A DNA stretch of 24,000 nt from Paludibacteraceae bacterium (GCA_024399545.1 JAKSNS010000008.1:1-24000), one strand, 5' to 3'; counted from the stretch's first letter, positions 68 through 17,054 are shown. Program-made: numbers and translations. Notes: generated by a model from the letters alone, not told the origin.

Positions 68-344
68 GTATTTTTTCGGGGCTGTAAATCAGCGGGTTAA
101 ATAGGGCAAATGCTTTTCGATAGTGCTTTTGCCTTGTGGTTATTGGTGTTTTTCCTGAGTTGGACGACGTGTTTTTCCCTTGGGAATGTGTTTTTTCTGA
201 AAATAAGGCTCTATAACGTTTCGTGTGGATGACTTTGCACGCAAACTCAAAGCTCTGAAAAATCGTGCAAGCGAAAGCAGAAACGAAGCTTGCTTCGGTT
301 ATGCTGAGTGTAGCCGATTTTATTAAAAGAGCGACATAAATCAG

Positions 345-364
345 CCCAGGGTGTAAACCCTGGG
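345..364 (-). terminator. GC-rich hairpin (stem cccaggg/ccctggg, 6-nt loop) downstream of the AddB-like gene; putative intrinsic terminator.
   Basis: A perfect 7-bp inverted repeat at 345-351 and 358-364. On the minus strand it is followed by a moderately T-rich stretch (ctgatttatgtcgctcttttaataaaat). It lies about 90 nt after the stop codon at 450. Confidence 0.45.
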
Positions 365-390
365 TAACAAGGCATTACCCATAAGGTATT

Positions 391-408
391 CCCCTCCTTG
401 GGGAGGGG
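391..408 (-). terminator. GC-rich hairpin (stem cccctcc/ggagggg, 4-nt loop) just downstream of the AddB-like stop codon.
   Basis: A perfect 7-bp inverted repeat at 391-397 and 402-408, about 40 nt after the stop at 450. No clear U-tract follows, so a terminator function is uncertain. Confidence 0.35.
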
Positions 409-421
409 GCAGGGGGTGGGG
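400..421 (+). other. Canonical G-quadruplex-forming motif GGGG-A-GGGGG-CA-GGGGG-T-GGGG on the plus strand.
   Basis: Four G-runs of at least 4 are separated by 1-2 nt loops, read directly at 400-421. The motif overlaps the 3' arm of the 391-408 hairpin. Confidence 0.6.
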
Positions 422-449
422 AAAATCCAATTCAGTGAATAAACCCACT

Positions 450-3230
450 CTATTTAGCCGTGAGGCATAGCTCGTGGAAGGGACAGTATTTGCAGTTGTC
501 TCTGTTTTCCGCGGTGCGGAGGAATAGTGATGGCGTGTCAAGGCATTTGCGTAGGTCCGTTAGGGTTTCCGCCATGCGTGCCTCAAATTCTGGCATTATC
601 ACTTCATAGTCAGTAAGTTCCATGACACCATCACTGGTCTCTGTTTGGATTGGTGTGAAGTCTTTCTTGTCTTTCTCCTTCGATAACGTGTAAATCTTGA
701 ATAGTTGAGGGATTAGTCGTGCGTTTGCGAAATCTGGCGTGCGGCGGAGGATGGCGCAGTATAGTAGCACTTGCATAACCTCAAGGTCGTATTTGCGGAC
801 TTTGTCGATTGAGAACATTCGGTCAAGCGACGCTTTCGTGTCATCTACCGAGGTTTTGTAGTCTATTACTACATATTCTCCACTCTCCATCCTGTCAATA
901 CGGTCAATAATCGCCTTTATTTTGAACCCTTCAAAGTCGGTGGTGAACTCAACTTCCGTTTGTACGTCGTAGAACTTTGCTCGTGACTCGTCAAAATTGA
1001 TTATGCGTCGAACTAGGGTTTTCAGTGAGTTGAATGCCAGGATGTCGTAGCCTCGGTTATGACGTTGGCGGACAACTTCTGCGTATGCCTGTTCGCAGAA
1101 TGTCGTTATCAGCTTTGACGATTGTTCTGCCGTCAGCAGGTGGTTCTCCCCTACTTTTTTGTAATACAGTTCAAGCGCACGGTGAAGGAGTTTGCCGAAA
1201 GTGCTGTCGGATATCGTGTCGTCTATGTCGTCTTGTTCTCTCAGGTTTAGCAGGTATTCGTAATAGAAACGCAGTGGGCAGGTGATGAATTTCTTGAGCG
1301 ATGAAGCGGATATTTGGGTGAGTCTATGAGCGGTAGGTGTTTGCTCGAAGTATGGTGTGAACAGGTTCTTCGACTGGTCGATGGTGTGTGCGATGGCGGC
1401 GTTGGCGTTTGTCATCGTGATGCCGTGGATGTAGCGCAATTGGTTGTAGAAGCGTGAGACTTCGGTCTTTGAATCCTCGTTCGTGGCGGTGGTGTAGATT
1501 AGGTCAAGGCGGCGACAACGGTGCAGCATACGGTAGAAGTTGTATGCGTAGATGCTGTTAGTGATTTCGTGCGAAGGCAATCCGTAGGGTTTTCGCAGTG
1601 AGTAGGGGATTATGGAGTTCGTCATGCCGTTGTTGCCAGGCACGAATTGGTCGTTGAAACCAACGAAGATTATGTTGTCGAAATCGAGCAGTCGGCATTC
1701 CAAAAGTCCCATAACCTGAAGTCCCTGAAGGGGTTCGCCACGGAACTGTACTTTCATTCCACGGGTTATCCTACGAATAAGTGCGTAAGTTTCGGTCTCG
1801 TCGGCAGATATGTCGGCGGACAAGAGGTGGTTGCGCAGGTTCTCTATTTGTGTCGTGTATTGGCGGACGAAATGGTGGTCTATGACTTCTGTGTCAGTGG
1901 CGGGATTGTCTTGTCGGTCAATGCTTTCCTTCAATCGGTTCAGGACCTGTAGCAGATAGCCGAATGTGTCGTGGTTGCGTGCGAAAAGCTGTTTGTCAAG
2001 CGATTGCAATTGTGCGGTAGGTATGCGGGAAATGTTGTTCTTTCGTATGTTTGAAATAATTTGCGTCGTTTCTGCTACAAGGCGGTTGCTCTCGTCATTT
2101 AGGTAAAGTTTGAGATAGGGGTGTGTGAGAAGGTCAATTAGTGGTTTATGGTATATTTTCTCAATGCCGTCGCTGTCAATCTCTATGCTGAGTTGCATTC
2201 GTATGACAAGGTTGACGAAATTTGCTATCTGGGTGCTTGCGAGTGGGTAACCCATTGTGACATTGATTTTTTTGATGTCACGAAGGTTGCTTAGCGTCTC
2301 TATGAGCATACTTTCGTCAGCAAGTACGATAGCTGTGTTTTCCTCGACATTGTCGTTGTTTCTTGCTATGTCTGACATCGCGCGACGCAAGGAATCTCCT
2401 TGTTCTGCAGATGTCATACAAGGGTATTCGTTGATGTCTGACGGTATGTTGAAACGGAAATCCCGGATGTTCGCTGAGTGATAGTCGAAGTCTGTGTCCT
2501 TGCGTTGCAGGGCGTTATAGTCAAAAACCATTCTGCGGTTGGTGAATTTCTCAATCACACGTTTTTCGCTTTCCGTCAGGATGTTGAACCCTGCGAATAT
2601 GATTTGTGCCTCCGAAAAACCCGAATCTTCGGCGTTGCATAGGTCACGGAAGAACATTCCCTCGTATGCTATGCCTTGCCCACGGAGAAGCGTCTGGAAT
2701 GTTTCGTAGAGTGGGTACATTATATTCCAGAGCATTGAGAAGCGTTGGTGGAAAAGTAGGGGAGTGTCGTCAGGTTTGGCAAGGAGTGTGTCGTAGAAGT
2801 GGCGGATGCTTTCGTCAGTGTTCGCTGTAAGTCCCGAAAGGTCGTTGATGTTCTGGAAAAGCGTCTGTGCGTCAACAAGGTATTTGTCTATTTCGTTGAA
2901 GTCGTGGAGGATTTTAGTGCCGAGTTCTATGAAGGATTTCAGTTGGTGGGTGTCTGATGGTGCAACGATAGTGTATGCTTTATATAGCCAAATTATGAGT
3001 TCTGTATCGTCAGCACGGCGCAGTGTAGACTGCTCTTCCACGAAACGGTTGATGTCCGTCACGTGGGGGAGTATGATGACCCTGCCGTCCCTTGACAGGC
3101 GTGACAAGGCACGGGTGAAGAAGAGACCTGCGCGGCGGTTAGGGAAAACGTAGGTTTGTCCGCTCAGGTCTATATTTTTGCCGTAGCCTTGTATGGCGTT
3201 TTCGGCGAGTGCGTCAATGAAGTGTCGCAT
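450..3230 (-). CDS. AddB-like PD-(D/E)XK nuclease family protein (inactivated-helicase N-terminal region plus C-terminal RecB-type nuclease with an Fe-S cysteine cluster).
   Basis: 926-aa ORF with an ATG start. The C-terminus carries a RecB-family nuclease core (IDRIDRMESGEYVVIDYKTS) and four cysteines arranged as in the AddB iron staple (FITCPLRFYYEY ... CKYCPFHELC). No Walker A motif is visible in the N-terminal region. Confidence 0.8.
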   Translation of the reverse strand: MRHFIDALAENAIQGYGKNIDLSGQTYVFPNRRAGLFFTRALSRLSRDGRVIILPHVTDINRFVEEQSTLRRADDTELIIWLYKAYTIVAPSDTHQLKSFIELGTKILHDFNEIDKYLVDAQTLFQNINDLSGLTANTDESIRHFYDTLLAKPDDTPLLFHQRFSMLWNIMYPLYETFQTLLRGQGIAYEGMFFRDLCNAEDSGFSEAQIIFAGFNILTESEKRVIEKFTNRRMVFDYNALQRKDTDFDYHSANIRDFRFNIPSDINEYPCMTSAEQGDSLRRAMSDIARNNDNVEENTAIVLADESMLIETLSNLRDIKKINVTMGYPLASTQIANFVNLVIRMQLSIEIDSDGIEKIYHKPLIDLLTHPYLKLYLNDESNRLVAETTQIISNIRKNNISRIPTAQLQSLDKQLFARNHDTFGYLLQVLNRLKESIDRQDNPATDTEVIDHHFVRQYTTQIENLRNHLLSADISADETETYALIRRITRGMKVQFRGEPLQGLQVMGLLECRLLDFDNIIFVGFNDQFVPGNNGMTNSIIPYSLRKPYGLPSHEITNSIYAYNFYRMLHRCRRLDLIYTTATNEDSKTEVSRFYNQLRYIHGITMTNANAAIAHTIDQSKNLFTPYFEQTPTAHRLTQISASSLKKFITCPLRFYYEYLLNLREQDDIDDTISDSTFGKLLHRALELYYKKVGENHLLTAEQSSKLITTFCEQAYAEVVRQRHNRGYDILAFNSLKTLVRRIINFDESRAKFYDVQTEVEFTTDFEGFKIKAIIDRIDRMESGEYVVIDYKTSVDDTKASLDRMFSIDKVRKYDLEVMQVLLYCAILRRTPDFANARLIPQLFKIYTLSKEKDKKDFTPIQTETSDGVMELTDYEVIMPEFEARMAETLTDLRKCLDTPSLFLRTAENRDNCKYCPFHELCLTAK

Positions 3231-3233
3231 GGT

Positions 3234-4142
3234 TTATTTGACTGGCTCTACAGTGTAGCCTGCTTTGCGAAGAAGCGTGATGACTCCTGTCTCGTCAAGA
3301 AGGTGTCCCGAACCTACGACAAAAAGCGTAGGGGCTTTCTTCATAATGTCAGGCATTATGGCAAGCCAGTTGTTGTTTCTCATCGTGAGCATCTTCTCCA
3401 TGTCTTTCTCGTTTAGTTCGTCACACTCGTTGCCAAACTTCATGTTCATTGCGTCTATAACTCCTTGCGCATCTTGTTTGATGTAAGCGTCAGTCATTAC
3501 GATGAGTTGTTTCTTTCCGACTTCTATGTTGTCGAGTAGGCAGTTGAATGACTCAACTTGTTGCTCGATGGAAATTGAGTTTAAAAGCATATCAATTTGG
3601 AATTTGCATGATTCCAAACCTCCCACTATCTTTCTCTCTTTAAGTGCCTGATTTTGGAAATACATGTCAATGCCTTTGTTAGGGTCGAATTTTCCAGGGT
3701 ACTCTTTGAGGTACATAAGTGCTTCAATCTGGTTTTCGATGGCTGCGGGTTTCATTTTACCCAATGAAGAGAATAGCAAAGGGTTGTCGAGGTTGGTGCC
3801 AACCAGTTCAAGTAACAGTTCGTTGAGCTTGTTGTAATGCTCTGGGTCAAGGATGTCTTTGATGGTGGTTTCATCAGGAAGCATCATAGCCTCTTGCATC
3901 ATCTTCAAGGTGTCAGGACTCATGAGGTTGGACATTATTACTTCGCCATAAACCTGTTTCGTGCTTTTCATCACTTTGTCAAGGCCTGGGATAGTGTTGG
4001 CGAAAGTCTCGTCAACCAAATGGTGCGTACCTATGATGTAGGATGCTTTTTTCAGGCCGTTACCTGAGATTTTGTAGAGGATTTGGCCGTTTGCCAAAGT
4101 TGCGCTCATAATTACGAGGGCAAGGAGAATGATTTTTTTCAT
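3234..4142 (-). CDS. TraB/GumN family protein, secreted or periplasmic.
   Basis: 302-aa ORF with an N-terminal signal peptide (MKKIILLALVIMSATLANG). Family-typical motifs are present: LYKISGNGLKKASYIIGTHHL near the N-terminus and FVVGSGHLLDETGVITLLRKAGYTVEPV at the C-terminus. Its stop lies 4 nt upstream of the AddB-like start. Confidence 0.8.
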   Translation of the reverse strand: MKKIILLALVIMSATLANGQILYKISGNGLKKASYIIGTHHLVDETFANTIPGLDKVMKSTKQVYGEVIMSNLMSPDTLKMMQEAMMLPDETTIKDILDPEHYNKLNELLLELVGTNLDNPLLFSSLGKMKPAAIENQIEALMYLKEYPGKFDPNKGIDMYFQNQALKERKIVGGLESCKFQIDMLLNSISIEQQVESFNCLLDNIEVGKKQLIVMTDAYIKQDAQGVIDAMNMKFGNECDELNEKDMEKMLTMRNNNWLAIMPDIMKKAPTLFVVGSGHLLDETGVITLLRKAGYTVEPVK

Positions 4143-4186
4143 AATGGTTTATTTTGTTGTGTATAGTGGTTATGAGTTAGACGGTG

Positions 4187-4194
4187 CAAAGGTA
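4187..4194 (-). promoter_or_regulatory. Bacteroidota sigma-A -7 box TACCTTTG (consensus TAnnTTTG) for the TraB/GumN-AddB-like operon.
   Basis: The plus strand reads caaaggta at 4187-4194, about 45 nt upstream of the ATG at 4142. A TTTG -33-like element (plus-strand caaa at 4214-4217) sits 19 nt further upstream. The site lies in the 85-nt intergenic gap. Confidence 0.6.
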
Positions 4195-4227
4195 CGAAAA
4201 ATTACTGAGAACACAAAGTTTTTTTCT

Positions 4228-5130
4228 TTATTTTTTATTGTAGTACCATAGTTGCCAACTGTTGAAGAGGTTTGCGAATATGCTGTAGAAGGCAAGAATG
4301 CAGGATGAAAGGGGGTTTAGGTACATATTGCCCATCCAGATGCCCATGGCGGTGTTTTTCTGTCCGAGCAGCTGTCCGCCAGCTATGGTGTCTCCGAAGT
4401 GATGTCCTATCAGTTTGCCAAAACCAAATTGCAGTGCGCAGAAGAATAGTGCGAGAAAACCGAGCCAAAGGATGTTGGCTGTGTTTCCTTCGCCATGGAT
4501 AAAGATAAAGTCTATTGTCTGACCGAGTGTTAGCAGCAGCGCGGTTGCCCAAAGGTAGAACGATAGTCCGTTGTAGCGTGCTATGGCTTTGCCTACACGA
4601 GGTGCCCATAATTGCAATGCAAGGGCAATGAAGAACGGTATTGCAAGTACAGAAGCCACACGCTTGAGAATAAGCAGGAAAGAGTCGAGGAAAGGCATCG
4701 TTTGCTGAACGCCTATAAAAGAGAAGACTACAGGGGCAACGCATGCTACCATCAGGTTGCCTATCATAGTGTATGTAGTTACGCGCACACGGTTGGCTCC
4801 AAGCATACACGAGACTACGGCGACCGATGACGCTACAGGGCAAAGGACACAAATCAGCACTCCTTCGGCAATTATGGTATTACGGGTTGTTGCCATTACA
4901 AGAATGTAGCCGCCAAGGCTGACGACAATCTGGAAAAGTGCGAGAATGAGGTCCATCCAACTGGGTTTCAGCGAGAAAATATCAACAGAGGTGAACGAGA
5001 AGACGAGTATGGAAAAAATAATGTAGGGGGTTACGAAACTTGCACGGCCGCAAAAGTCGTGGAGCAGAATGCCGAGGATAATGGCGGCAGGAAGGACGTA
5101 GGGTTTGATTTTTTGTTTTGTGTTTTGCAT
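4228..5130 (-). CDS. Polytopic integral membrane protein, transporter-like (possibly a bile-acid:Na+ symporter/SBF-like fold).
   Basis: 300-aa ORF with an ATG start. It is hydrophobic throughout, with roughly 9-10 predicted membrane spans. The family assignment is from general resemblance only. Confidence 0.6.
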   Translation of the reverse strand: MQNTKQKIKPYVLPAAIILGILLHDFCGRASFVTPYIIFSILVFSFTSVDIFSLKPSWMDLILALFQIVVSLGGYILVMATTRNTIIAEGVLICVLCPVASSVAVVSCMLGANRVRVTTYTMIGNLMVACVAPVVFSFIGVQQTMPFLDSFLLILKRVASVLAIPFFIALALQLWAPRVGKAIARYNGLSFYLWATALLLTLGQTIDFIFIHGEGNTANILWLGFLALFFCALQFGFGKLIGHHFGDTIAGGQLLGQKNTAMGIWMGNMYLNPLSSCILAFYSIFANLFNSWQLWYYNKK

Positions 5131-9228: not shown

Positions 9229-12200
9229 TTAATCATCAACAGGAGGCAAATCGTTATCAGTAAACTCTTCCTCAACGACTTCTGTGCTGGTTTTGAATGC
9301 CTTACCGTTGATGGATAGTTGCTCAATCTGTCCGTCCATCTGCATTTTCTCGAGTGTCTTTATGAAATCGTTGGATTGTGCGTTCACCTTATAGAGACGT
9401 GAGCGTGTCATCAGACGTGCATTGAACTCTGAGTCAATGATTTCAATGCGGAACTCAGTCTCGCCCTTGTTGTCTTGTATCAGCGAGCCTATCTCGCGGA
9501 GGCTATCCTCATTCTTGTTTATGTCTATAGTCACGGTGACATCTTGTATGAGGTGTAAAGTTTCGCGTGCCTCCTCAAGTGTCTTCATCCCTGACACTAC
9601 GACCTCCATTTCATTTGTCGGCTGTGCCCATTTGTAGTCTGCGTTTTTCATCTGTACTGTTAGTTGGATGTAAACGAAGAGGTTCTTGACGAAGAATTTT
9701 GAGAAATCAAGGTAGCGTTGTCCGAACAATCTCACCTCGGCTGTGCCTGAATAGTCCTCTATTTTCAGTATTCCGTACGGTTTGTTGTTTTTCGTCATCT
9801 TCTGCTCGCCGCTAATCACTATTCCACCGACGGTATAAACGCCTTTGCCCATTGACGCGAGTTTTGAGATGTCTTTCGACTCGTTCGAGCAACCATATAG
9901 GATTTCTGTGCGATATTGGTCAAGTGGGTGGGCGGAGAGGTATATCCCCAACAGGTCTTTCTCTTTGTTTAGTACCTCAAGGTCTGTTATTACTGGGTTG
10001 CTGTCCAACGATGGTTTTACCATCTCTGGAGCATCGTCAAGTCCGTCAAACAGTGACTGTTGGCTTTCCATTTTGTCCGCTTGGATTTTCTCGCCGTACC
10101 ATTTCAGTTCGTCTATTACGACATTGCCTTTGCTGTTGTTGGCAAAGAACTGTTCTCGACGTATTTCATTGCGGAAACAGTCCAGTGCGCCACTCCATAT
10201 CAGTACCTCAAGTGTCTTGCTGTTGCATTTGCCCGAAGGGATTCGCTCGAAGAAATCATACACCGAGGTGTATGGTCCATTCTCTTTCCTCTCGTTTATT
10301 ATATATTCGACTGATGCCGACCCTGCGCCCTTGATGGCGGCAAGTCCAAAGCGGATTTCTCCCTTTTTGTTTACGGAGAAGGTTGCTTCTGATTCGTTTA
10401 CGTCTGGACCAAGTACGCTGATACGCATGTGTTTGCACTCTGCCATAAGTTTCTCGATGTCCGAGGCATTGCCCAAGCTTCGTGTCAAGTTGCCAGCCAT
10501 AAATTCGGCAGGGTAGTGGGCTTTCAGGTATGCCGTCTGGTATGCCACCCACGAGTAGCATGTCGCATGTGACTTGTTGAATGCGTATGATGCGAATTTC
10601 TCCCAGTCTGCCCAGATTTTTTCGAGTGTTTTTGCGTCATGTCCGTTCTCTTGTCCCTGTTGGATGAATTTTGGCTTCAGGTGGTCAAGTTTGTCTTTCT
10701 GCTTCTTACCCATAGCCTTACGCAGGGTGTCACTCTCGCCGCGCGTGAAGTTAGCCAGTTGTCGCGACAGTAGCATCACCTGCTCTTGATATACCGTGAT
10801 GCCGTATGTGTCCTTCAGGTATTTCTCCATGCATGGGATGTCGTACTCTATAGGTTTACGCCCCAGCTTACGGTCTATGAAGTCTGGGATATAATCCATA
10901 GGTCCTGGGCGGTAAAGGGCGTTCATGGCAATAAGGTCCTCGAAGACTGATGGTTTCAGTTCACGAAGGTATTTCTGCATACCCGGCGACTCAAATTGGA
11001 AGGTTGCTATCGTGTTGCCGTCTTGGTATAGCTTATAAGTCTCGGGGTCGTCTATAGGTATGTGCGCTATGTCAACGTCAATGCCTTGCGAGATCTTTAT
11101 GTTCTTGAGGGTCTCTTTGATGATACTCAGCGTTTTGAGTCCAAGGAAGTCCATCTTTATAAGCCCTACCGACTCAATAAGCGAACCAACGTATTGTGTT
11201 ACGAGCAACTCCTCTTTCGTGTCTTTGTCTTTGGCTGTGCTGAGTGGTGCGAATTTTTTCAGGTCGTCAGCACCGATAATCACGCCGCAGGCGTGGATAC
11301 CCGTCTGGCGTACAGTTCCTTCCAGCATGCTTGCGTATTTGAATACGTTGTGCATCTCGTCGTTCAGTCGGTCTTCGTCCTGTAGTTCAGGTATTGCCTG
11401 GAGGCATTTCTTGATGTTTATTTTCTTGTCGTCGCCTATCTTCGTCGGGATTAGTTTCGTCACCCTGTTTACGTCGGCAAGTGGCATTTTCAGGATACGT
11501 CCAACATCCTTTATTGACGATTTTGTCGCCATTGTCCCGAAGGTGATGATGTGCGCTACTTTCTCAGCACCATATTTTTGCGTCACCCAACGCAAAACCT
11601 CGGCACGTCCGTCGTCGTCAAAGTCAATATCAATATCAGGCAGGGATATACGGTCAGGGTTGAGGAAACGTTCAAACAGCAGGTCGTATTTAAGCGGGTC
11701 AACGTCCGTAATCTGTAGGCAATAGGCCACAACAGAACCTGCCGCCGAACCACGTCCTGGTCCTACCGAGACTCCCATGTTGCGTGCCGCCATTATGAAG
11801 TCCTGCACGATTAGGAAGTAGCCAGGGAAACCCATTGTCTTCATTACGTGTAGCTCGAAATTCAGGGTCTCCATAATATGTTCGGGCACAGGGTCGCCGT
11901 AACGCCTTTTCGCACCTTCGATGGTCAGTTTCTTCAGGTAGTCAGCTTCCAGTTTTATGCGGTACAGTTTGTCGTAGCCTCCCAGTTTCTTTATCTTTTT
12001 CTCTGCGTCTTCTTGGCTCATGACCACCTCGCCAACCTCGTTACGCGTGAATTCATCGAACAAATCTTGTTCCGTTATGCGTTGGCGGTACTCCTCTTCT
12101 GTGCCGAAGTCCTCTGGTATTGCGAATTTTGGCATGATAGGGTCACGTTCCAGCGAGAACACCTCCACTTTATCTACTATTTCCTGCGTGTTCTCCAAAA

Positions 12201-13071
12201 CCTCCGGAATGTCGGCGAATATTTCGCCCATCTCCTCTTTGCTCTTGAACCACTCCTGTTTCGTGTAACACATTCGCGATGGGTCGTCAACGTCTTTTCC
12301 TGTGCTCAGGCATATCAGCAGCTCATGGGCGTCGGCGTTATCTTCGTCCAGGAAGTGTACGTCGTTCGTTGCTATCACCTTGGTGCCCGTCTCTTTAGCC
12401 AATCGCATAATCACTTCGTTGACCTTCTTCTGTCTGAGGTACGTGGTTTGGTCTGCGCGCGGTTTGTCGGTTTTGTGGCGTTGTATTTCCAAATAGTAGT
12501 CGTCGCCGAAAATCTCCTTGAACCACATTATCGATTTGCGAGCCTCTTCAACTTCGCCAGCCATAATCAGTTGCGCTATCTCTCCGCCAAGGCAAGCCGA
12601 GCATACTATCAACCCTTCGCTGTGTTCCTTCAGTATGTATTTGTCTATACGTGGTTTAGAATAGTAACCATCCACCCACGACACGGATACCATGTGGCAC
12701 AGGTTCTCGTAACCCTTCATATTCTTGGCAATCAGGATCAGGTGGTAGCCCGAATAATCGACAATCCTTTCACGTCCGTTCTCTGGATTGACTGTTTTAT
12801 AGTCTTTGTCTTTGTCCGTCAGGTGGCGGCGTGCGCAATATGCCTCAACGCCTATGAGGGGTTTTATAAACGAAGGGTCAGATGGTTCGAGACCTTTATT
12901 GTTCTTCGCGCATTTGTCTATGAACTCCTTTATGCCGAACATATTGCCGTGGTCTGTGATGGCCAGTGCGTTCATCCCGTATTTCTTGCAACGGTCAATC
13001 AGCCCCCCGACGCTTGACATTCCGTCAAGCACCGAATACTGTGTATGTACGTGTAAATGCGTGAAGTTCAT
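9229..13071 (-). CDS. dnaE: DNA polymerase III alpha subunit.
   Basis: 1280-aa ORF with an N-terminal PHP domain (HLHVHTQYSVLDG, AITDHGNMFG), a polymerase core (GPGRGSAAGS, PDIDIDF) and an OB-fold C-terminal region. Confidence 0.97.
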   Translation of the reverse strand: MNFTHLHVHTQYSVLDGMSSVGGLIDRCKKYGMNALAITDHGNMFGIKEFIDKCAKNNKGLEPSDPSFIKPLIGVEAYCARRHLTDKDKDYKTVNPENGRERIVDYSGYHLILIAKNMKGYENLCHMVSVSWVDGYYSKPRIDKYILKEHSEGLIVCSACLGGEIAQLIMAGEVEEARKSIMWFKEIFGDDYYLEIQRHKTDKPRADQTTYLRQKKVNEVIMRLAKETGTKVIATNDVHFLDEDNADAHELLICLSTGKDVDDPSRMCYTKQEWFKSKEEMGEIFADIPEVLENTQEIVDKVEVFSLERDPIMPKFAIPEDFGTEEEYRQRITEQDLFDEFTRNEVGEVVMSQEDAEKKIKKLGGYDKLYRIKLEADYLKKLTIEGAKRRYGDPVPEHIMETLNFELHVMKTMGFPGYFLIVQDFIMAARNMGVSVGPGRGSAAGSVVAYCLQITDVDPLKYDLLFERFLNPDRISLPDIDIDFDDDGRAEVLRWVTQKYGAEKVAHIITFGTMATKSSIKDVGRILKMPLADVNRVTKLIPTKIGDDKKINIKKCLQAIPELQDEDRLNDEMHNVFKYASMLEGTVRQTGIHACGVIIGADDLKKFAPLSTAKDKDTKEELLVTQYVGSLIESVGLIKMDFLGLKTLSIIKETLKNIKISQGIDVDIAHIPIDDPETYKLYQDGNTIATFQFESPGMQKYLRELKPSVFEDLIAMNALYRPGPMDYIPDFIDRKLGRKPIEYDIPCMEKYLKDTYGITVYQEQVMLLSRQLANFTRGESDTLRKAMGKKQKDKLDHLKPKFIQQGQENGHDAKTLEKIWADWEKFASYAFNKSHATCYSWVAYQTAYLKAHYPAEFMAGNLTRSLGNASDIEKLMAECKHMRISVLGPDVNESEATFSVNKKGEIRFGLAAIKGAGSASVEYIINERKENGPYTSVYDFFERIPSGKCNSKTLEVLIWSGALDCFRNEIRREQFFANNSKGNVVIDELKWYGEKIQADKMESQQSLFDGLDDAPEMVKPSLDSNPVITDLEVLNKEKDLLGIYLSAHPLDQYRTEILYGCSNESKDISKLASMGKGVYTVGGIVISGEQKMTKNNKPYGILKIEDYSGTAEVRLFGQRYLDFSKFFVKNLFVYIQLTVQMKNADYKWAQPTNEMEVVVSGMKTLEEARETLHLIQDVTVTIDINKNEDSLREIGSLIQDNKGETEFRIEIIDSEFNARLMTRSRLYKVNAQSNDFIKTLEKMQMDGQIEQLSINGKAFKTSTEVVEEEFTDNDLPPVDD

Positions 13072-13221
13072 AAGGTAAGTTCAATAAATTCATTTTGAGG
13101 GTTTTTGGAGTTTGTTTTGAGCAAGATGCCAAAAGAAACTTCAAAAAAACCAAAAGGTTTATTTGTTACATATTTTTACTTTTTCATCTTAAACGGTGAA
13201 TTTATAGAACTCACCACAATA

Positions 13222-13956
13222 TTATTGTACAACGTATTTGTCGTCCTCGGTTCGTTTTACAAACCCTATGGTTTCAAGAAACTGGTGCATTGTAGTGACG
13301 GATTCACTAAATTCTGCCCCGTCACTCTTTTTTCTTTTGTGAATGTCGAAGGAACGGTTACAGGCATCTTCGACTCTTCTTTGTCGTGTCTCAGGATTGA
13401 CAGCCATCATCAAATCGAAAAAATCATCATTCACTTCTTTATTGCCGTTATCGTATATGTTGACTTTTTGTTTAGAATGTGATTTGTTATACTTTATAAT
13501 GTGGTTGTTTATCAAATCTATTTGAGCCTGTGAGTGGCTGTCATGTTTGCATGGTATAGGCTCACCCGAATGATTTTCAAAATGCAACAAAAACCAATAT
13601 TCTATACACATATTTGAGAAAACCACCTCAAACCCTGCGTCTCTTGCTTCCTTGATTGCTGCTGAGAAATCCTTATGTCCGTCACAGTCAAACATCAACC
13701 AACGCTGTGTGAATTTCCTACGTTGCTCTCTGGGGAGTGTGTTGTAGGCTTTTGTGCAACTGTCAACAAATTCTTCGCAACTTCCTATTCCCGACCCTTT
13801 TTTGACTATTGGAACCAATTTCAGATTGCTGCGTTTGAGTTGTTCGATATATGATTTCTCGGTGTTTCTTCCCTCGACATAGACTATAATCTGCCTGGGT
13901 GTTTTCTGACCGTTTCCCCGCTGTTTGAGCGTGCTGTTTGAATGTTTGTTTTTCAT
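13222..13956 (-). CDS. RloB-family protein (Toprim-like predicted nuclease), the second gene of an ATPase-RloB pair.
   Basis: 244-aa ORF with an ATG start. It matches the RloB family signature: IIVYVEGRNTEKSY (Toprim Glu, E28), RWLMFDCDGHKDF (DxD, D90/D92) and VVFSNMCIEYWFLLHFE (the family consensus as I recall it is roughly SNpcFElWlLLHFe). It starts 7 nt after the upstream ATPase stop. Confidence 0.85.
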   Translation of the reverse strand: MKNKHSNSTLKQRGNGQKTPRQIIVYVEGRNTEKSYIEQLKRSNLKLVPIVKKGSGIGSCEEFVDSCTKAYNTLPREQRRKFTQRWLMFDCDGHKDFSAAIKEARDAGFEVVFSNMCIEYWFLLHFENHSGEPIPCKHDSHSQAQIDLINNHIIKYNKSHSKQKVNIYDNGNKEVNDDFFDLMMAVNPETRQRRVEDACNRSFDIHKRKKSDGAEFSESVTTMHQFLETIGFVKRTEDDKYVVQ

Positions 13957-13963
13957 AGCGCAT

Positions 13964-15241
13964 TCATAGGATGTCTTCTATTTTCGCGACATTGAAATTA
14001 GGCACGCCGCCTAAAGCTCCGTCAATGTAGGAAGTTTCAGCATTAATCCTTGAGCTGTACTCTTCCAAAGAATCCAATTTAGCTTCGCCATAACGGTTTT
14101 TGTTGACGACATACAATTGGTCATTATTAAACAGCTTATATTCGTTATTTATATCTTTGGCATTCAGCAGAGAGGTGTTCTGTGAATTGATAATCAATTG
14201 CGCATGATTGTCGTTCCTGTAAAACAGACTGACGATAAACCTCACTATGTTGGTATGCAATCCGCTGTCAATCTCATCTACAAGCAAAATCGTCCCTTTT
14301 GAAAGTGCATTGAATATTGGCCCGACAAGCGCAAACAACCTGTTTGTTCCGAACGACTCGTCTTCTTCCATCCTGAAGGCGGTGGTGTCAATCCTTTCGT
14401 AGTTTTCATTGAACACTTTGTGGAAAGCCAAAACACCATCCACGAATTTTTCGTCCGGCTCATGTGGTATTATCTTTCTTATCTTTTCCGGCAGGTCATC
14501 GGCTGATATTTCGTGCAGCTGTATGTCTTCTATGTTGAAATCGAATGCCTTCATGAACTCTTTCACGGGAGTGCCTTGACCCATCGCCCTTAAAGTTCCC
14601 GCCATATTCATGTCGTTTGCCGAAATTATGGCGATAGACGAGAACCAATTGACTATCTCTTTGGATGTAGAATCGTTGAATGTTGCTAACAAAGATAGAA
14701 ACGGAGTTGTTTCAGACAGCATATTGGCATTCTTCAGGTTGGTGGCTATTGCTTGGTTAATCAACTCCTGATTGTCAAAGACACAATTGTTTTCTTCCCG
14801 TTCTATTATCCGGCTTTCGCTTTCCTCTTTGGTTTTTTGTGCATACAGCCATTCAGCGACTATGTGTTTTGAATCGACCTCAAATCCATAGCGGTACTGA
14901 ATTTCATTCAAAATGAATATAACCTCAAATGATGAGTTTTTGTTGGCGAAATGTGTGTTCAATCGGAAACTGTCGTATTCCTTCAGCCAGTAATTGCTGA
15001 TTGGGGTCTTTTCATCGCGAAGTGGGGGACAAATGACACACTGCATAAACTTTAACGCATCAAACAATTTTGTTTTGCCACTGCCATTTGCTCCATAAAC
15101 TGCCACCGCTTTGAGCACAGAATACTTATGAGGAGTGCGTATTGAACGATGTCCCTTCCTGGACGTATTCTCAGTCAGTAGGCTTAAAGCTGTTTCGTCA
15201 GCGAAGCATTTGAAATTATTGAAAGTGAATTGCACCAACAT
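13964..15241 (-). CDS. ABC/AAA_21-type ATPase (RloA/AbiLi/AriA-like), the first gene of the ATPase-RloB pair.
   Basis: Motifs are Walker A GANGSGKT (15071-15094), a signature-like ESFGTNRL, and Walker B ILLVDEIDSGLH (D333/E334 at 14273-14278). A long insertion of about 230 aa separates Walker A from the signature motif. The ORF-track start at 15274 is a TTG overlapping the galE stop. The ATG at 15241 gives the family-typical N-terminus MLVQFTFNNFKCF, so I prefer it. Confidence 0.85.
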   Translation of the reverse strand: MLVQFTFNNFKCFADETALSLLTENTSRKGHRSIRTPHKYSVLKAVAVYGANGSGKTKLFDALKFMQCVICPPLRDEKTPISNYWLKEYDSFRLNTHFANKNSSFEVIFILNEIQYRYGFEVDSKHIVAEWLYAQKTKEESESRIIEREENNCVFDNQELINQAIATNLKNANMLSETTPFLSLLATFNDSTSKEIVNWFSSIAIISANDMNMAGTLRAMGQGTPVKEFMKAFDFNIEDIQLHEISADDLPEKIRKIIPHEPDEKFVDGVLAFHKVFNENYERIDTTAFRMEEDESFGTNRLFALVGPIFNALSKGTILLVDEIDSGLHTNIVRFIVSLFYRNDNHAQLIINSQNTSLLNAKDINNEYKLFNNDQLYVVNKNRYGEAKLDSLEEYSSRINAETSYIDGALGGVPNFNVAKIEDIL

Positions 15242-15270
15242 ATAGCATGTCCCCTTTTCCTTTGCGTGAC

Positions 15271-16281
15271 TCAATACCCCTCAGGGTTATTCTTCTGCCA
15301 GTTCCACGAATCCCGGCACATCTCCTCAATGCCGTACTTCGCCTCCCAGCCCAGTTCCGCCTTAGCCTTCGCGGGGTTGCAGTAGCACGTCGCAATGTCA
15401 CCCGCACGGCGTGGCTTTATGCTGTAAGGCACCTCAACGCCGTTCACCTTCACGAACGCCCTCACCACGTCCAACACGCTGTAGCCGTGACCCGTACCGA
15501 GGTTATAAATCCCTATCCCGCACTTACGCTCAATGGCCTTCAGCGCAGCCACATGTCCTGCCGCCAGGTCGCACACATGAATATAGTCACGCACGCCCGT
15601 GCCGTCATGCGTGTCATAGTCATTGCCGAAAACGCCCAGCTCCTTGCGTATCCCCACAGCCGTCTGAGTGATATAAGGCATCAGGTTATTCGGAATGCCG
15701 TTCGGATTCTCGCCCATCGTCCCTGAAGGGTGCGCCCCTATAGGGTTGAAATACCTCAGCAAAATCACATTCCACTCCCTGTCGGCCCTCTGCACGTCCA
15801 TCAGCACCTCCTCAAGCATCGACTTCGTCTGACCGTAAGGATTCGTGCAATGCCCCTTCGGACACTCCTCCGTGATAGGGATAATCTGCGGATCGCCATA
15901 CACAGTCGCCGACGAACTGAAAATTATATTCTTGCACCCGTGACTGCGCATAGCCTCCAACAGCACGAACGTCGCATTCATATTATTTTCATAATACTCC
16001 AACGGCTTCTCCACCGACTCGCCCACGGCCTTCAGCCCCGCGAAATGTATCACTGCGTCAATCCTGTTCTCCCCGAAAACCCTGTCCATAGCCTCACGGT
16101 CACGCACGTCAGCCCTCACGAAAGGAATCTCACGACCCACAATCCTCCCAGCCCTGCGCAGCGACTCGGGATTCGAGTTACTCAGATTGTCAACCACGAC
16201 GGCACTGTGTCCCGCCTTGTAAAGCTCGATTGCGGTATGCGACCCAATGTAGCCTGCCCCGCCTGTAAGAAGTATATTCAT
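15271..16281 (-). CDS. galE: UDP-glucose 4-epimerase.
   Basis: 336-aa ORF with the Rossmann motif LLTGGAGYIGSH, the SSSATVYG and YGQTK catalytic motifs, and full-length similarity to GalE. Codon usage is noticeably G/T-ending, unlike the neighbouring genes. Confidence 0.95.
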   Translation of the reverse strand: MNILLTGGAGYIGSHTAIELYKAGHSAVVVDNLSNSNPESLRRAGRIVGREIPFVRADVRDREAMDRVFGENRIDAVIHFAGLKAVGESVEKPLEYYENNMNATFVLLEAMRSHGCKNIIFSSSATVYGDPQIIPITEECPKGHCTNPYGQTKSMLEEVLMDVQRADREWNVILLRYFNPIGAHPSGTMGENPNGIPNNLMPYITQTAVGIRKELGVFGNDYDTHDGTGVRDYIHVCDLAAGHVAALKAIERKCGIGIYNLGTGHGYSVLDVVRAFVKVNGVEVPYSIKPRRAGDIATCYCNPAKAKAELGWEAKYGIEEMCRDSWNWQKNNPEGY

Positions 16282-16322
16282 AATATTTTGCCCTATATTT
16301 TTTGAGACAACATTTCAACCTG

Positions 16323-16330
16323 CAAAGGTA
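16323..16330 (-). promoter_or_regulatory. Bacteroidota -7 box TACCTTTG with a -33 TTTG for galE.
   Basis: The plus strand reads caaaggta at 16323-16330, about 42 nt upstream of the galE ATG (16281). A plus-strand caaa at 16351-16354 lies 20 nt further upstream. The 16-mer tgcaaaggtacgaaaa is identical to the one at 4185-4200. Confidence 0.65.
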
Positions 16331-16432
16331 CGAAAATAATCCGAGACCGCCAAACATTTCCGCAAAAAAACTTTTCCGCCACACACACCGAAAAAAACTC
16401 CCCGAACCCTTGCCTATATCAAAAAAACTCCT

Positions 16433-16440
16433 TACCTTTG
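16433..16440 (+). promoter_or_regulatory. Bacteroidota -7 box TACCTTTG with a -33-like TTG, divergent from the galE promoter.
   Basis: tacctttg at 16433-16440, with ttg at 16410-16412 (20-nt spacer). It lies 66 nt upstream of the ATG at 16506. Confidence 0.55.
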
Positions 16441-16505
16441 CACAACCTACTCCATACGGACAGTGAATATGATTATCAACTACTTATCCCCAAAAACCGA
16501 ACAAA

Positions 16506-17054
16506 ATGCGTGACTACACCTTCGACAACAAGCCTATCTCCTACATCTCAGGACGCCTCAGCCGCAAAAGTGACGTCTATTACCGCACCATAAACGGGAA
16601 AATCTACGCATACCTCCTCTGGAACCCCAACACCAAACCGCCAACCCTCGGAACCCTCCGCACACGCCAAATCTTCAAAACCGCCTCACTCTACACCTCC
16701 CTCGACCTAAAACTCCCCTTCAAACTCGCCGAATGGAAACACCGCATGGCAGAGCACAACCGCCTCGCCATCAGCCTAAACCCCGATTTCGCACGACACC
16801 CCGAAAACTACAACAAACACAACGACCCACAACACCTACGCCCCTACACCTCAGTGCGTTACTTCATCCTCGCATCCTATACCCATGCCCTGAAATCCCT
16901 CACCACAAACCGCCCGCAACTCACAATAAAACCCAAAACAAAACCACAACTCACCACCGAAATCCTGACCCTCTTCATCCGCCTCAACCTCTTCACCGAC
17001 CGCCTTGCCTTCGACGGCCGTCAACCCACCTACTTCGCCAAACCTCCCACCTGA
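16506..17054 (+). CDS. Hypothetical protein (orphan, 182 aa), the only plus-strand ORF candidate. Coding status is uncertain.
   Basis: It has an ATG start, a canonical promoter upstream, and a varied N-terminal two-thirds containing W, Y, F, D and E. However, the local plus strand is so poor in G and T that stop codons are rare, a second frame is open across the same region (16733-17116), and the C-terminal third is low-complexity (T/P/K/L-rich). I recognise no family. Confidence 0.4.
   Translation: MRDYTFDNKPISYISGRLSRKSDVYYRTINGKIYAYLLWNPNTKPPTLGTLRTRQIFKTASLYTSLDLKLPFKLAEWKHRMAEHNRLAISLNPDFARHPENYNKHNDPQHLRPYTSVRYFILASYTHALKSLTTNRPQLTIKPKTKPQLTTEILTLFIRLNLFTDRLAFDGRQPTYFAKPPT

Follow-up and report, generated by a model that had tools for sequence, protein, structure and literature searches.

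Two co-directional genes lying between galE and dnaE on a contig of the Paludibacteraceae raise the question of which system they form and how they came to occupy this place. The stretch analysed (the window, 24,000 nucleotides (nt), positions counted from its first letter) belongs to a metagenome-assembled genome (MAG), and the relevant proteins are deposited as MCQ2343781-84. An earlier note, made from the sequence alone, had read the pair as a stand-alone defence or abortive-infection module, composed of an ABC-type ATPase and an RloB protein, in a Bacteroidota host and without adjacent restriction genes. The host is indeed a member of the Bacteroidota, the neighbours of the pair are galE and dnaE, and the Pfam and PADLOC families found for the two proteins argue for such a module. 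We consider it probable that the pair is an anti-phage (abortive-infection) cassette of the AbiL family, carried as accessory cargo at a galE/dnaE hotspot in a gut species of the Paludibacteraceae. The genes are arranged as follows.

13964..15241, minus strand: abiLi-like ATPase gene (open reading frame (ORF) A), 425 amino acids (aa) from the ATG at 15241
13964..15274, minus strand: alternative reading of ORF A from a TTG start at 15274, 436 aa; the TTG overlaps the galE stop codon
13957..13963, minus strand: spacer between the ATPase stop and the RloB start, 7 nt, read from the sequence
13222..13956, minus strand: abiLii-like RloB gene (ORF B), 244 aa

The strand of both ORFs and the start of the second one 7 nt after the stop of the first are as the earlier note had given them. 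The ATG at 15241, with which the protein begins MLVQFTFNNFKCF..., is more likely to be the start of ORF A than the TTG, because gene callers took it on three independent contigs. The 7-nt spacer suggests that the two genes form a single operon, possibly with coupled translation.

When the proteins were compared with profile databases (E-values in brackets), ORF A matched Pfam AAA_21 (1.2e-34) and, with residues 5-431 of the 436-aa translation, the PADLOC model PDLC02335 for AbiLi (1.4e-75). ORF B matched Pfam RloB over the full length of the profile (1-195/195; 1.1e-28) and the PADLOC model PDLC02337 for AbiLii (3.1e-18). An ABC-ATPase family and the RloB family of Pfam, both named in the earlier note, and a defence system recognized by PADLOC were recovered in this way, with E-values that leave chance out of the question. 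An AbiLi-type ATPase and an RloB protein, encoded by adjacent co-directional genes in the order ATPase then RloB, are what the PADLOC/DefenseFinder definition of AbiL describes, and by its profile matches the pair is a member of this known two-gene abortive-infection family. The novelty of the locus had been overstated: PADLOC or DefenseFinder would call the pair automatically, as AbiL, it adds one member to the thousands in databases, and papers have already described the ATPase-plus-Toprim logic common to AbiL, RloAB, PARIS and OLD (PMC11464382, PMC13064643) and the kinship of AbiL with PARIS and OLD (also PMC10440598), AbiL having been grouped with PARIS among the ABC ATPase + TOPRIM systems (PMC11464382). 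The deposited proteins are labelled 'ATP-binding protein' (MCQ2343783) and 'RloB family protein' (MCQ2343782), and NCBIfam held no specific model for the cassette proteins. Word-indexed relatives numbered 870 for the ATPase and 162 for RloB.

The ATPase contains the Walker A motif GANGSGKT, the signature-like sequence DESFGTNRL and the Walker B motif LLVDEID, with about 238 residues between Walker A and the signature. Residue numbers given here refer to the 425-aa protein (K67 and E334 of the 436-aa numbering are K56 and E323). The key residues are G50-T57 of Walker A (including K56), Q115 of the Q-loop, D294-E-S-x-G-T-N-R-L302 of the signature-like motif (with S296, G298, T299 and R301), D322-E323 of Walker B, D325 of the D-loop, and H329. 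In an alignment of 32 homologues (43-64% identity) Walker A, Q115, the signature, Walker B, D325 and H329 were invariant, and all ATPase motifs quoted in the earlier note were among these invariant positions. The H-loop histidine is absent: where the P2 Old sequence 'STHS' has its His, the aligned residue is Q354 (codon at window 14180-14182). The position is polymorphic among the 32 homologues (21 with Q, 11 with H), and a glutamine at this place may slow ATP hydrolysis. The AlphaFold2 (AF2) model of the protein (predicted local distance difference test score, pLDDT, 85) matched the heads of Rad50, SMC and PtuA (Septu and retron) when searched against PDB with Foldseek (E 1e-7 to 1e-6, prob 1.00). 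The sequence profile reached solved structures with the C-terminal lobe only, namely the retron Ec83 ATPase and PtuA. ORF A is an ABC-type (Rad50/SMC-like) ATPase. In a second MAG the deposited annotation of the same gene (L099:5830-7107) gives an ATPase of 360 aa (MCQ2337642); its annotated start is too far downstream, since the full 425-aa ORF is intact on that contig.

The RloB protein carries the motifs VEGRNTE, FDCDG and SNMCIEYWFLLHFE. Residues E28, G29, T32, E33, D90, D92, G93, S114, E119, W121 and H125 were invariant in 25 close homologues. When 116 distant homologues were aligned, E33, D90, W121 and H125 were still invariant, and E28, D92 and E119 were found in at least 90%, so that the motifs VEGRNTE and FDCDG of the earlier note proved to be both present and conserved in their key residues. 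Candidate catalytic residues are E28/E33 (VEGRNTE), D90xD92 (FDCDG) and E119, and the protein is a putative nuclease effector of the Toprim type. In the AF2 model (pLDDT 87) the N-terminal half consists of alternating strands and helices; E28 comes directly after strand 21-27 (strand 1), and D90xD92 closes strand 82-90 (strand 3). A glutamate after strand 1 and a DxD after strand 3 is, on the predicted fold, the Toprim arrangement. The C-terminal half is helical and conserved within the subfamily only. A search of 1.84 billion cluster representatives with the RloB profile yielded, at E<=1e-3, 5,328 clusters of the RloB family. The top 150 were without exception short stand-alone proteins with no long fusion among them, and the nearest relatives beyond the 90% cluster of the protein itself were 61-64% identical.

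The two genes travel together. Every RloB homologue locus inspected had an AAA_21 ATPase gene immediately upstream, the order was ATPase then RloB throughout, and the identities of the two proteins tracked one another on shared contigs; pairing is obligate. Homologous pairs (~50% identity) were found at varied positions, either in defence islands, an association that the earlier note had anticipated, or alone. One island (L011) had AAA_13+WYL, TIR and methyltransferase+PRTase-CE+ORC/CDC6-like genes beside the pair, and others (L136-L139) contained KAP NTPases, a second AAA_15 pair, Fic and IS66 fragments. Of the stand-alone pairs, one (L131) lay between fimbrial genes and alanine racemase and another (L133) adjoined polysaccharide genes. 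A tblastn search of plasmids returned distant pairs only (<36% identity), including pairs on small, mobilizable Enterobacteriaceae plasmids of 3.5-6 kb; one was annotated as abiLI, others as 'abortive infection protein', and the organisms listed did not include Lactococcus. The possibility that the cassette is phage-borne was rejected: in IMG/VR a homologous pair was present at 2 loci only, with plasmid-like (RepL) rather than phage-like neighbours.

How the pair came to lie between galE and dnaE was addressed by comparing contigs that encode an identical GalE protein, and then members of the DnaE cluster (galE 97-100% identical). The features of the junction in the window are as follows.

15271..16281, minus strand: galE, upstream flank of the hotspot
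15242..15270, minus strand: spacer between the galE stop and the ATPase start, 29 nt, left edge of the variable segment
13072..15270, no strand assigned: variable segment of the galE-dnaE junction, 2199 nt, consisting of the cassette and an element resembling a miniature inverted-repeat transposable element (MITE); empty strains have a 28-nt spacer instead
13074..13215, minus strand: MITE-like element in the RloB-dnaE spacer, 142 nt
9229..13071, minus strand: dnaE, flank of the hotspot on the downstream side, with a divergent allele from ~9550 to 13071

Three states of the junction were found on contigs with matching galE, and their flanking DNA was otherwise 94-99.7% identical. The AbiL cassette was present in the window and in L001, L004, L005 and L099, the last being a contig of the second Paludibacteraceae MAG, whose cassette is 98-99.7% identical to that of the window. 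Another contig (L002:1229-4608) carried instead the defence system Menshen, with PADLOC matches to NsnA (1.8e-103), NsnB (1.1e-91) and NsnC (8.1e-78), and five short contigs (L006-L010) began like it. In the empty state the galE stop and the dnaE start were separated by 28 nt (L003:1327-1354, L097:1357-1384, L098:1490-1517), and the cassette and MITE sequence was wholly absent. Since three states occur beside near-identical galE, the pair is accessory cargo at a defence hotspot. The earlier note had named presence at this exact position in all relatives as an argument against an accessory module; the site was empty or Menshen-bearing in contigs whose galE is identical or nearly so.

The 29-nt galE-ATPase spacer of the window is entirely unlike the one of 28 nt found in the empty allele. 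The variable segment is swapped precisely between the two flanking coding sequences. Such exact replacement is what homologous recombination in the conserved flanks would yield, and we infer that the alleles were probably exchanged in this way. The G+C fraction was 0.36-0.42 over the cassette as against ~0.48-0.53 in the flanks. Because L097, L098 and L099 share the gene order of the window over the named genes dnaE, lepA, the CitMHS transporter, DUF805, TraB and the PD-(D/E)XK gene, the pair is the sole accessory insert in this shared stretch, as the earlier note had also concluded for its surroundings. (Between dnaE and lepA these three contigs also carry a gene for thioredoxin.) Among 80 GalE-bearing loci of GTDB representative genomes (best GalE identity 86%) none had dnaE beside galE. 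The adjacency is lineage-specific, and the hotspot is therefore open to study within the lineage only. The species is a member of the Paludibacteraceae from horse or ruminant gut, in which one chromosomal site with AbiL, Menshen or nothing offers a natural experiment on the turnover of defence hotspots in Bacteroidales.

The cassette appears to be expressed as part of this gene string. The sole Bacteroidetes-type TAnnTTTG promoter motif, TACCTTTG, lies upstream of galE (16323-16330); there was none inside or adjoining the cassette, and no terminator-like site was found in 12900-16600. With neither a terminator nor a promoter motif of its own, the cassette probably shares with galE and dnaE a transcript that starts at the galE promoter. 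A scan for sigma-70 promoters was uninformative (7 sites versus 5.8 expected).

AbiL of Lactococcus lactis plasmid pND861, the archetype of the family, likewise consists of adjacent co-directional genes for an ABC/Rad50-like ATPase and then an RloB-type protein, and it too stands alone without restriction genes nearby. The archetype resides on a Firmicute plasmid, whereas the window pair is chromosomal in a member of the Bacteroidales and lies inside the galE-dnaE string, apparently without its own promoter. With PARIS (AriA/AriB) the pair shares the split into an ABC ATPase and a small partner, putatively a metal-dependent nuclease, and a presumed toxin/antitoxin-like logic. The PARIS effector, however, is a DUF4435 protein, whereas that of the window is RloB (PF13707), and the H-loop residue of the ATPases differs, being Gln in the window. 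At E<=0.1 neither Pfam nor PADLOC gave a match of the window pair to DUF4435 or AriB, and the sequence profiles retrieved no AriA or AriB chains from PDB. The PADLOC 'AriA' model PDLC02980 did match the ATPase (1.3e-32), but AbiLi matched far better, and since the coordinates were identical to those of Pfam AAA_21 the AriA match appears generic and is not taken as evidence for PARIS.

The combination of an ABC ATPase with a nuclease bearing a Toprim-type Glu/DxD site, which in the window pair is putative, occurs in the OLD family (class 1, P2 Old) and in Gabija (GajA, class 2), and the region from Walker B to the H-loop of the window ATPase gave an hhalign alignment to P2 Old with E 3.7e-6. 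In Old and GajA both domains are fused in one polypeptide, whereas those of the window pair are encoded by separate genes, and no GajB-like helicase gene is adjacent. The RloA/RloB ORFs of Campylobacter type I restriction-modification (R-M) loci have a small protein of the same Pfam family and an ATPase partner; unlike these, the window cassette is autonomous, with no hsdR, hsdM or hsdS nearby. Menshen (NsnABC), which occupies the same galE|dnaE site in sister strains, contains an ABC ATPase (NsnB), and in some of its variants NsnC has an RloB effector domain (PMC12065111). Its three genes include one for a ParB/DUF262 sensor (NsnA) and one for a DUF3696 ATPase, and neither NsnA nor NsnC is encoded in the window cassette.

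The mode of action we propose is borrowed from these relatives. In PARIS a hexamer of AriA sequesters AriB until a phage trigger frees AriB, which then cuts tRNA-Lys (PMC11464382), and paired AAA ATPases neutralize TOPRIM_OLD toxins (PMC10440598). By analogy, an oligomer of the window ATPase would bind the RloB nuclease and keep it inactive. Sensing of a phage-derived trigger by the ATPase would, through ATP binding or hydrolysis, release or activate RloB, whose Glu + DxD metal site would then cleave host or phage nucleic acid. Lactococcal AbiL requires both genes and blocks c2-type phages after transcription (PMC13064643); because it acts at this stage, tRNA or other RNA would be the most likely target. 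Cleavage would stop phage production at the expense of the infected cell. AbiLii of Fusobacterium nucleatum is toxic in E. coli (PMC3985639).

Several observations weigh against this interpretation. The relationship of RloB to Toprim, asserted in the literature from HHpred (PMC10440598) and from structure and motif analysis (PMC12065111), stayed below statistical significance in the sequence and structure tests made here. A Foldseek search of PDB with the RloB model gave no match at E<1e-3; the Toprim domains of gyrase / topoisomerase II and of RNase M5 appeared at E 0.1-0.2 only. In BFVD the sole significant match was a phage 'RloB-like protein' (1.5e-8), with DnaG-type primase Toprim domains at E ~0.09-0.15. 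Three RloB alignments of rising depth, compared with P2 Old by hhalign, aligned the VEGxTE/LVEGKTE motif alone at a non-significant E of 0.03-0.12, and phmmer and hmmsearch of RloB against PDB were empty. When 116 diverse members of the family were scanned with Pfam, Toprim_3 was found in 2 and DUF4276 in 1, all of them weak matches. What speaks for a Toprim fold is thus the position of the motifs on the predicted fold together with the published comparisons, and the 'split OLD-like' ATPase-Toprim label of the earlier note stands to this extent, whereas Foldseek and hhalign did not bear it out. In addition, F. nucleatum AbiLi supplied from a second plasmid failed to neutralize AbiLii in the single published test (PMC3985639), so the sequestration model may not transfer directly. 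Since the H-loop His is replaced by Gln here and in 21 of the 32 homologues, ATP turnover may also differ from that of PARIS. Finally, no AbiL of the Bacteroidota has apparently been tested by experiment.

The substrate of the effector is the point at which a neighbouring explanation departs from ours. With the same architecture and the same sensing, an activated RloB might nick or degrade phage or host DNA in the manner of OLD or Gabija, whose Toprim nucleases Old and GajA cleave DNA (cited in PMC11464382). The Glu + DxD metal site fits either substrate, and the gyrase/topoisomerase II and DnaG Toprim domains among the sub-threshold structural neighbours would agree with DNA; RNase M5, however, is among the same neighbours. 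We regard a DNA-cleaving effector as unlikely, since lactococcal AbiL acts post-transcriptionally and leaves DNA replication unblocked (PMC13064643, Table 1), and since in PARIS, which has been studied best among the split ATPase/Toprim systems, the effector AriB cleaves tRNA (PMC11464382). Rather doubtful, in our judgement, is a mode of action in which the Bacteroidales AbiL pairs differ from PARIS: the Gln, frequent at this position in the clade, of the H-loop would make the ATPase an ATP-binding switch with little hydrolysis, the subfamily-specific C-terminal half of RloB would select a distinct substrate, and expression would be constitutive within the essential-gene operon galE-dnaE. If true, this would be the first mechanism for the RloB branch, which comprises ~5,300 clusters at 50% identity and has no solved structure. 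As a weaker addition to it, recombination at the hotspot may also have swapped the adjacent dnaE allele.

The ATPase and RloB could also be the antitoxin and toxin of a selfish addiction module that stabilizes its own locus without a meaningful anti-phage role. AAA/TOPRIM_OLD pairs do score as toxin-antitoxin systems (PMC10440598), AbiLii is toxic (PMC3985639), and addiction is plausible on the 3.5-6 kb plasmids that carry distant pairs as their main cargo. This explanation seems very unlikely for the window pair, however, because AbiL in its archetypal form makes cells resistant to phage (PMC13064643), a bona fide defence system, Menshen, alternates with the pair at this locus and homologues lie in defence islands; moreover, toxin-antitoxin behaviour and defence can coexist. 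A role outside autonomous defence, either as an RloA/RloB-type accessory of a distant type I R-M system or as a housekeeping ATPase-nuclease working with DnaE, is extremely improbable. RloB was named from ORFs within Campylobacter type I R-M loci (PMC12065111, PMC13064643), but hsd genes were absent from the 24-kb window and from the neighbourhoods of the homologues inspected. Similarly, the cassette is directly upstream of dnaE and probably co-transcribed with it, but strains with near-identical flanks lack the pair or carry Menshen, so that it is dispensable and not tied to dnaE function, and the galE-dnaE adjacency is itself confined to the lineage. An abortive-infection cassette of the AbiL family, with an effector acting probably on RNA, is therefore the reading we prefer. 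The mechanism of AbiL is still listed as open in a 2026 review of lactococcal Abi systems (PMC13064643), neither AbiL component has been solved structurally, and PDB searches gave no close solved relative for either cassette protein; a tractable member of the family could test whether the PARIS model generalizes.

The MITE-like element fills nearly the whole 150-nt spacer between RloB and dnaE, for which Rfam gave no family. It is bounded by 19-nt terminal inverted repeats at 13197-13215 and 13074-13092 (GGTGAGTTCTATAAATTCA ... TGAATTTATTGAACTTACC). Its left-end 20-mer was found on 31 gut and rumen metagenome contigs; on 13 of these the corresponding right end followed at a distance of 68-199 nt, in many cases with TTAA on the flanks. 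Copies include L099:7855-7997 and those on L100-L130. In the Menshen allele a degenerate 45-nt form lies between galE and nsnA (L002:1172-1216). The idea that the element is a general shuttle of defence cassettes was discarded: other copies are flanked by housekeeping genes such as sdhA, panB, typA, relA and recQ, and the element is therefore not specific for defence.

The downstream flank of the hotspot is mosaic. From the dnaE start codon to ~300 nt before the stop codon (~9550..13071) the window DNA is 75-88% identical to every other contig of the species, including L099, whereas the DNA on either side is 94-99.7% identical. The DnaE protein of the window is 92% identical to the others, which are ~99.7% identical to one another. 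Both alleles are held in NCBI assembly GCA_024500545.1, and the divergent dnaE is due either to real recombination or to mixed-strain assembly. Arrival of this allele together with the cassette was rejected as an explanation, since L099 has the same cassette beside the common dnaE allele.

A low-identity block at window ~1220-4300, which contains the TraB/PrgY-like and PD-(D/E)XK nuclease genes (64-89% per 300-nt bin versus L097, L098 and L099; >94% around it), suggests another mosaic segment. At window 312-364 (minus strand) Rfam matched the Acido-Lenti-1 small RNA with 38.8 bits (threshold 37), within a 117-nt repeat rich in G/C hairpins (window 326-441). A second copy of this repeat (89% identity) is at L099:3703-3819, the point at which the gene orders of L099 and the window diverge upstream of a 182-aa ORF (window ~17137). 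This ORF (window 16506-17054, plus strand) encodes a Pro/Thr/His-rich protein with no Pfam match and lies in a stretch of extreme GC skew (-0.57); L099 has a gene of equal length on the same strand at the corresponding position.

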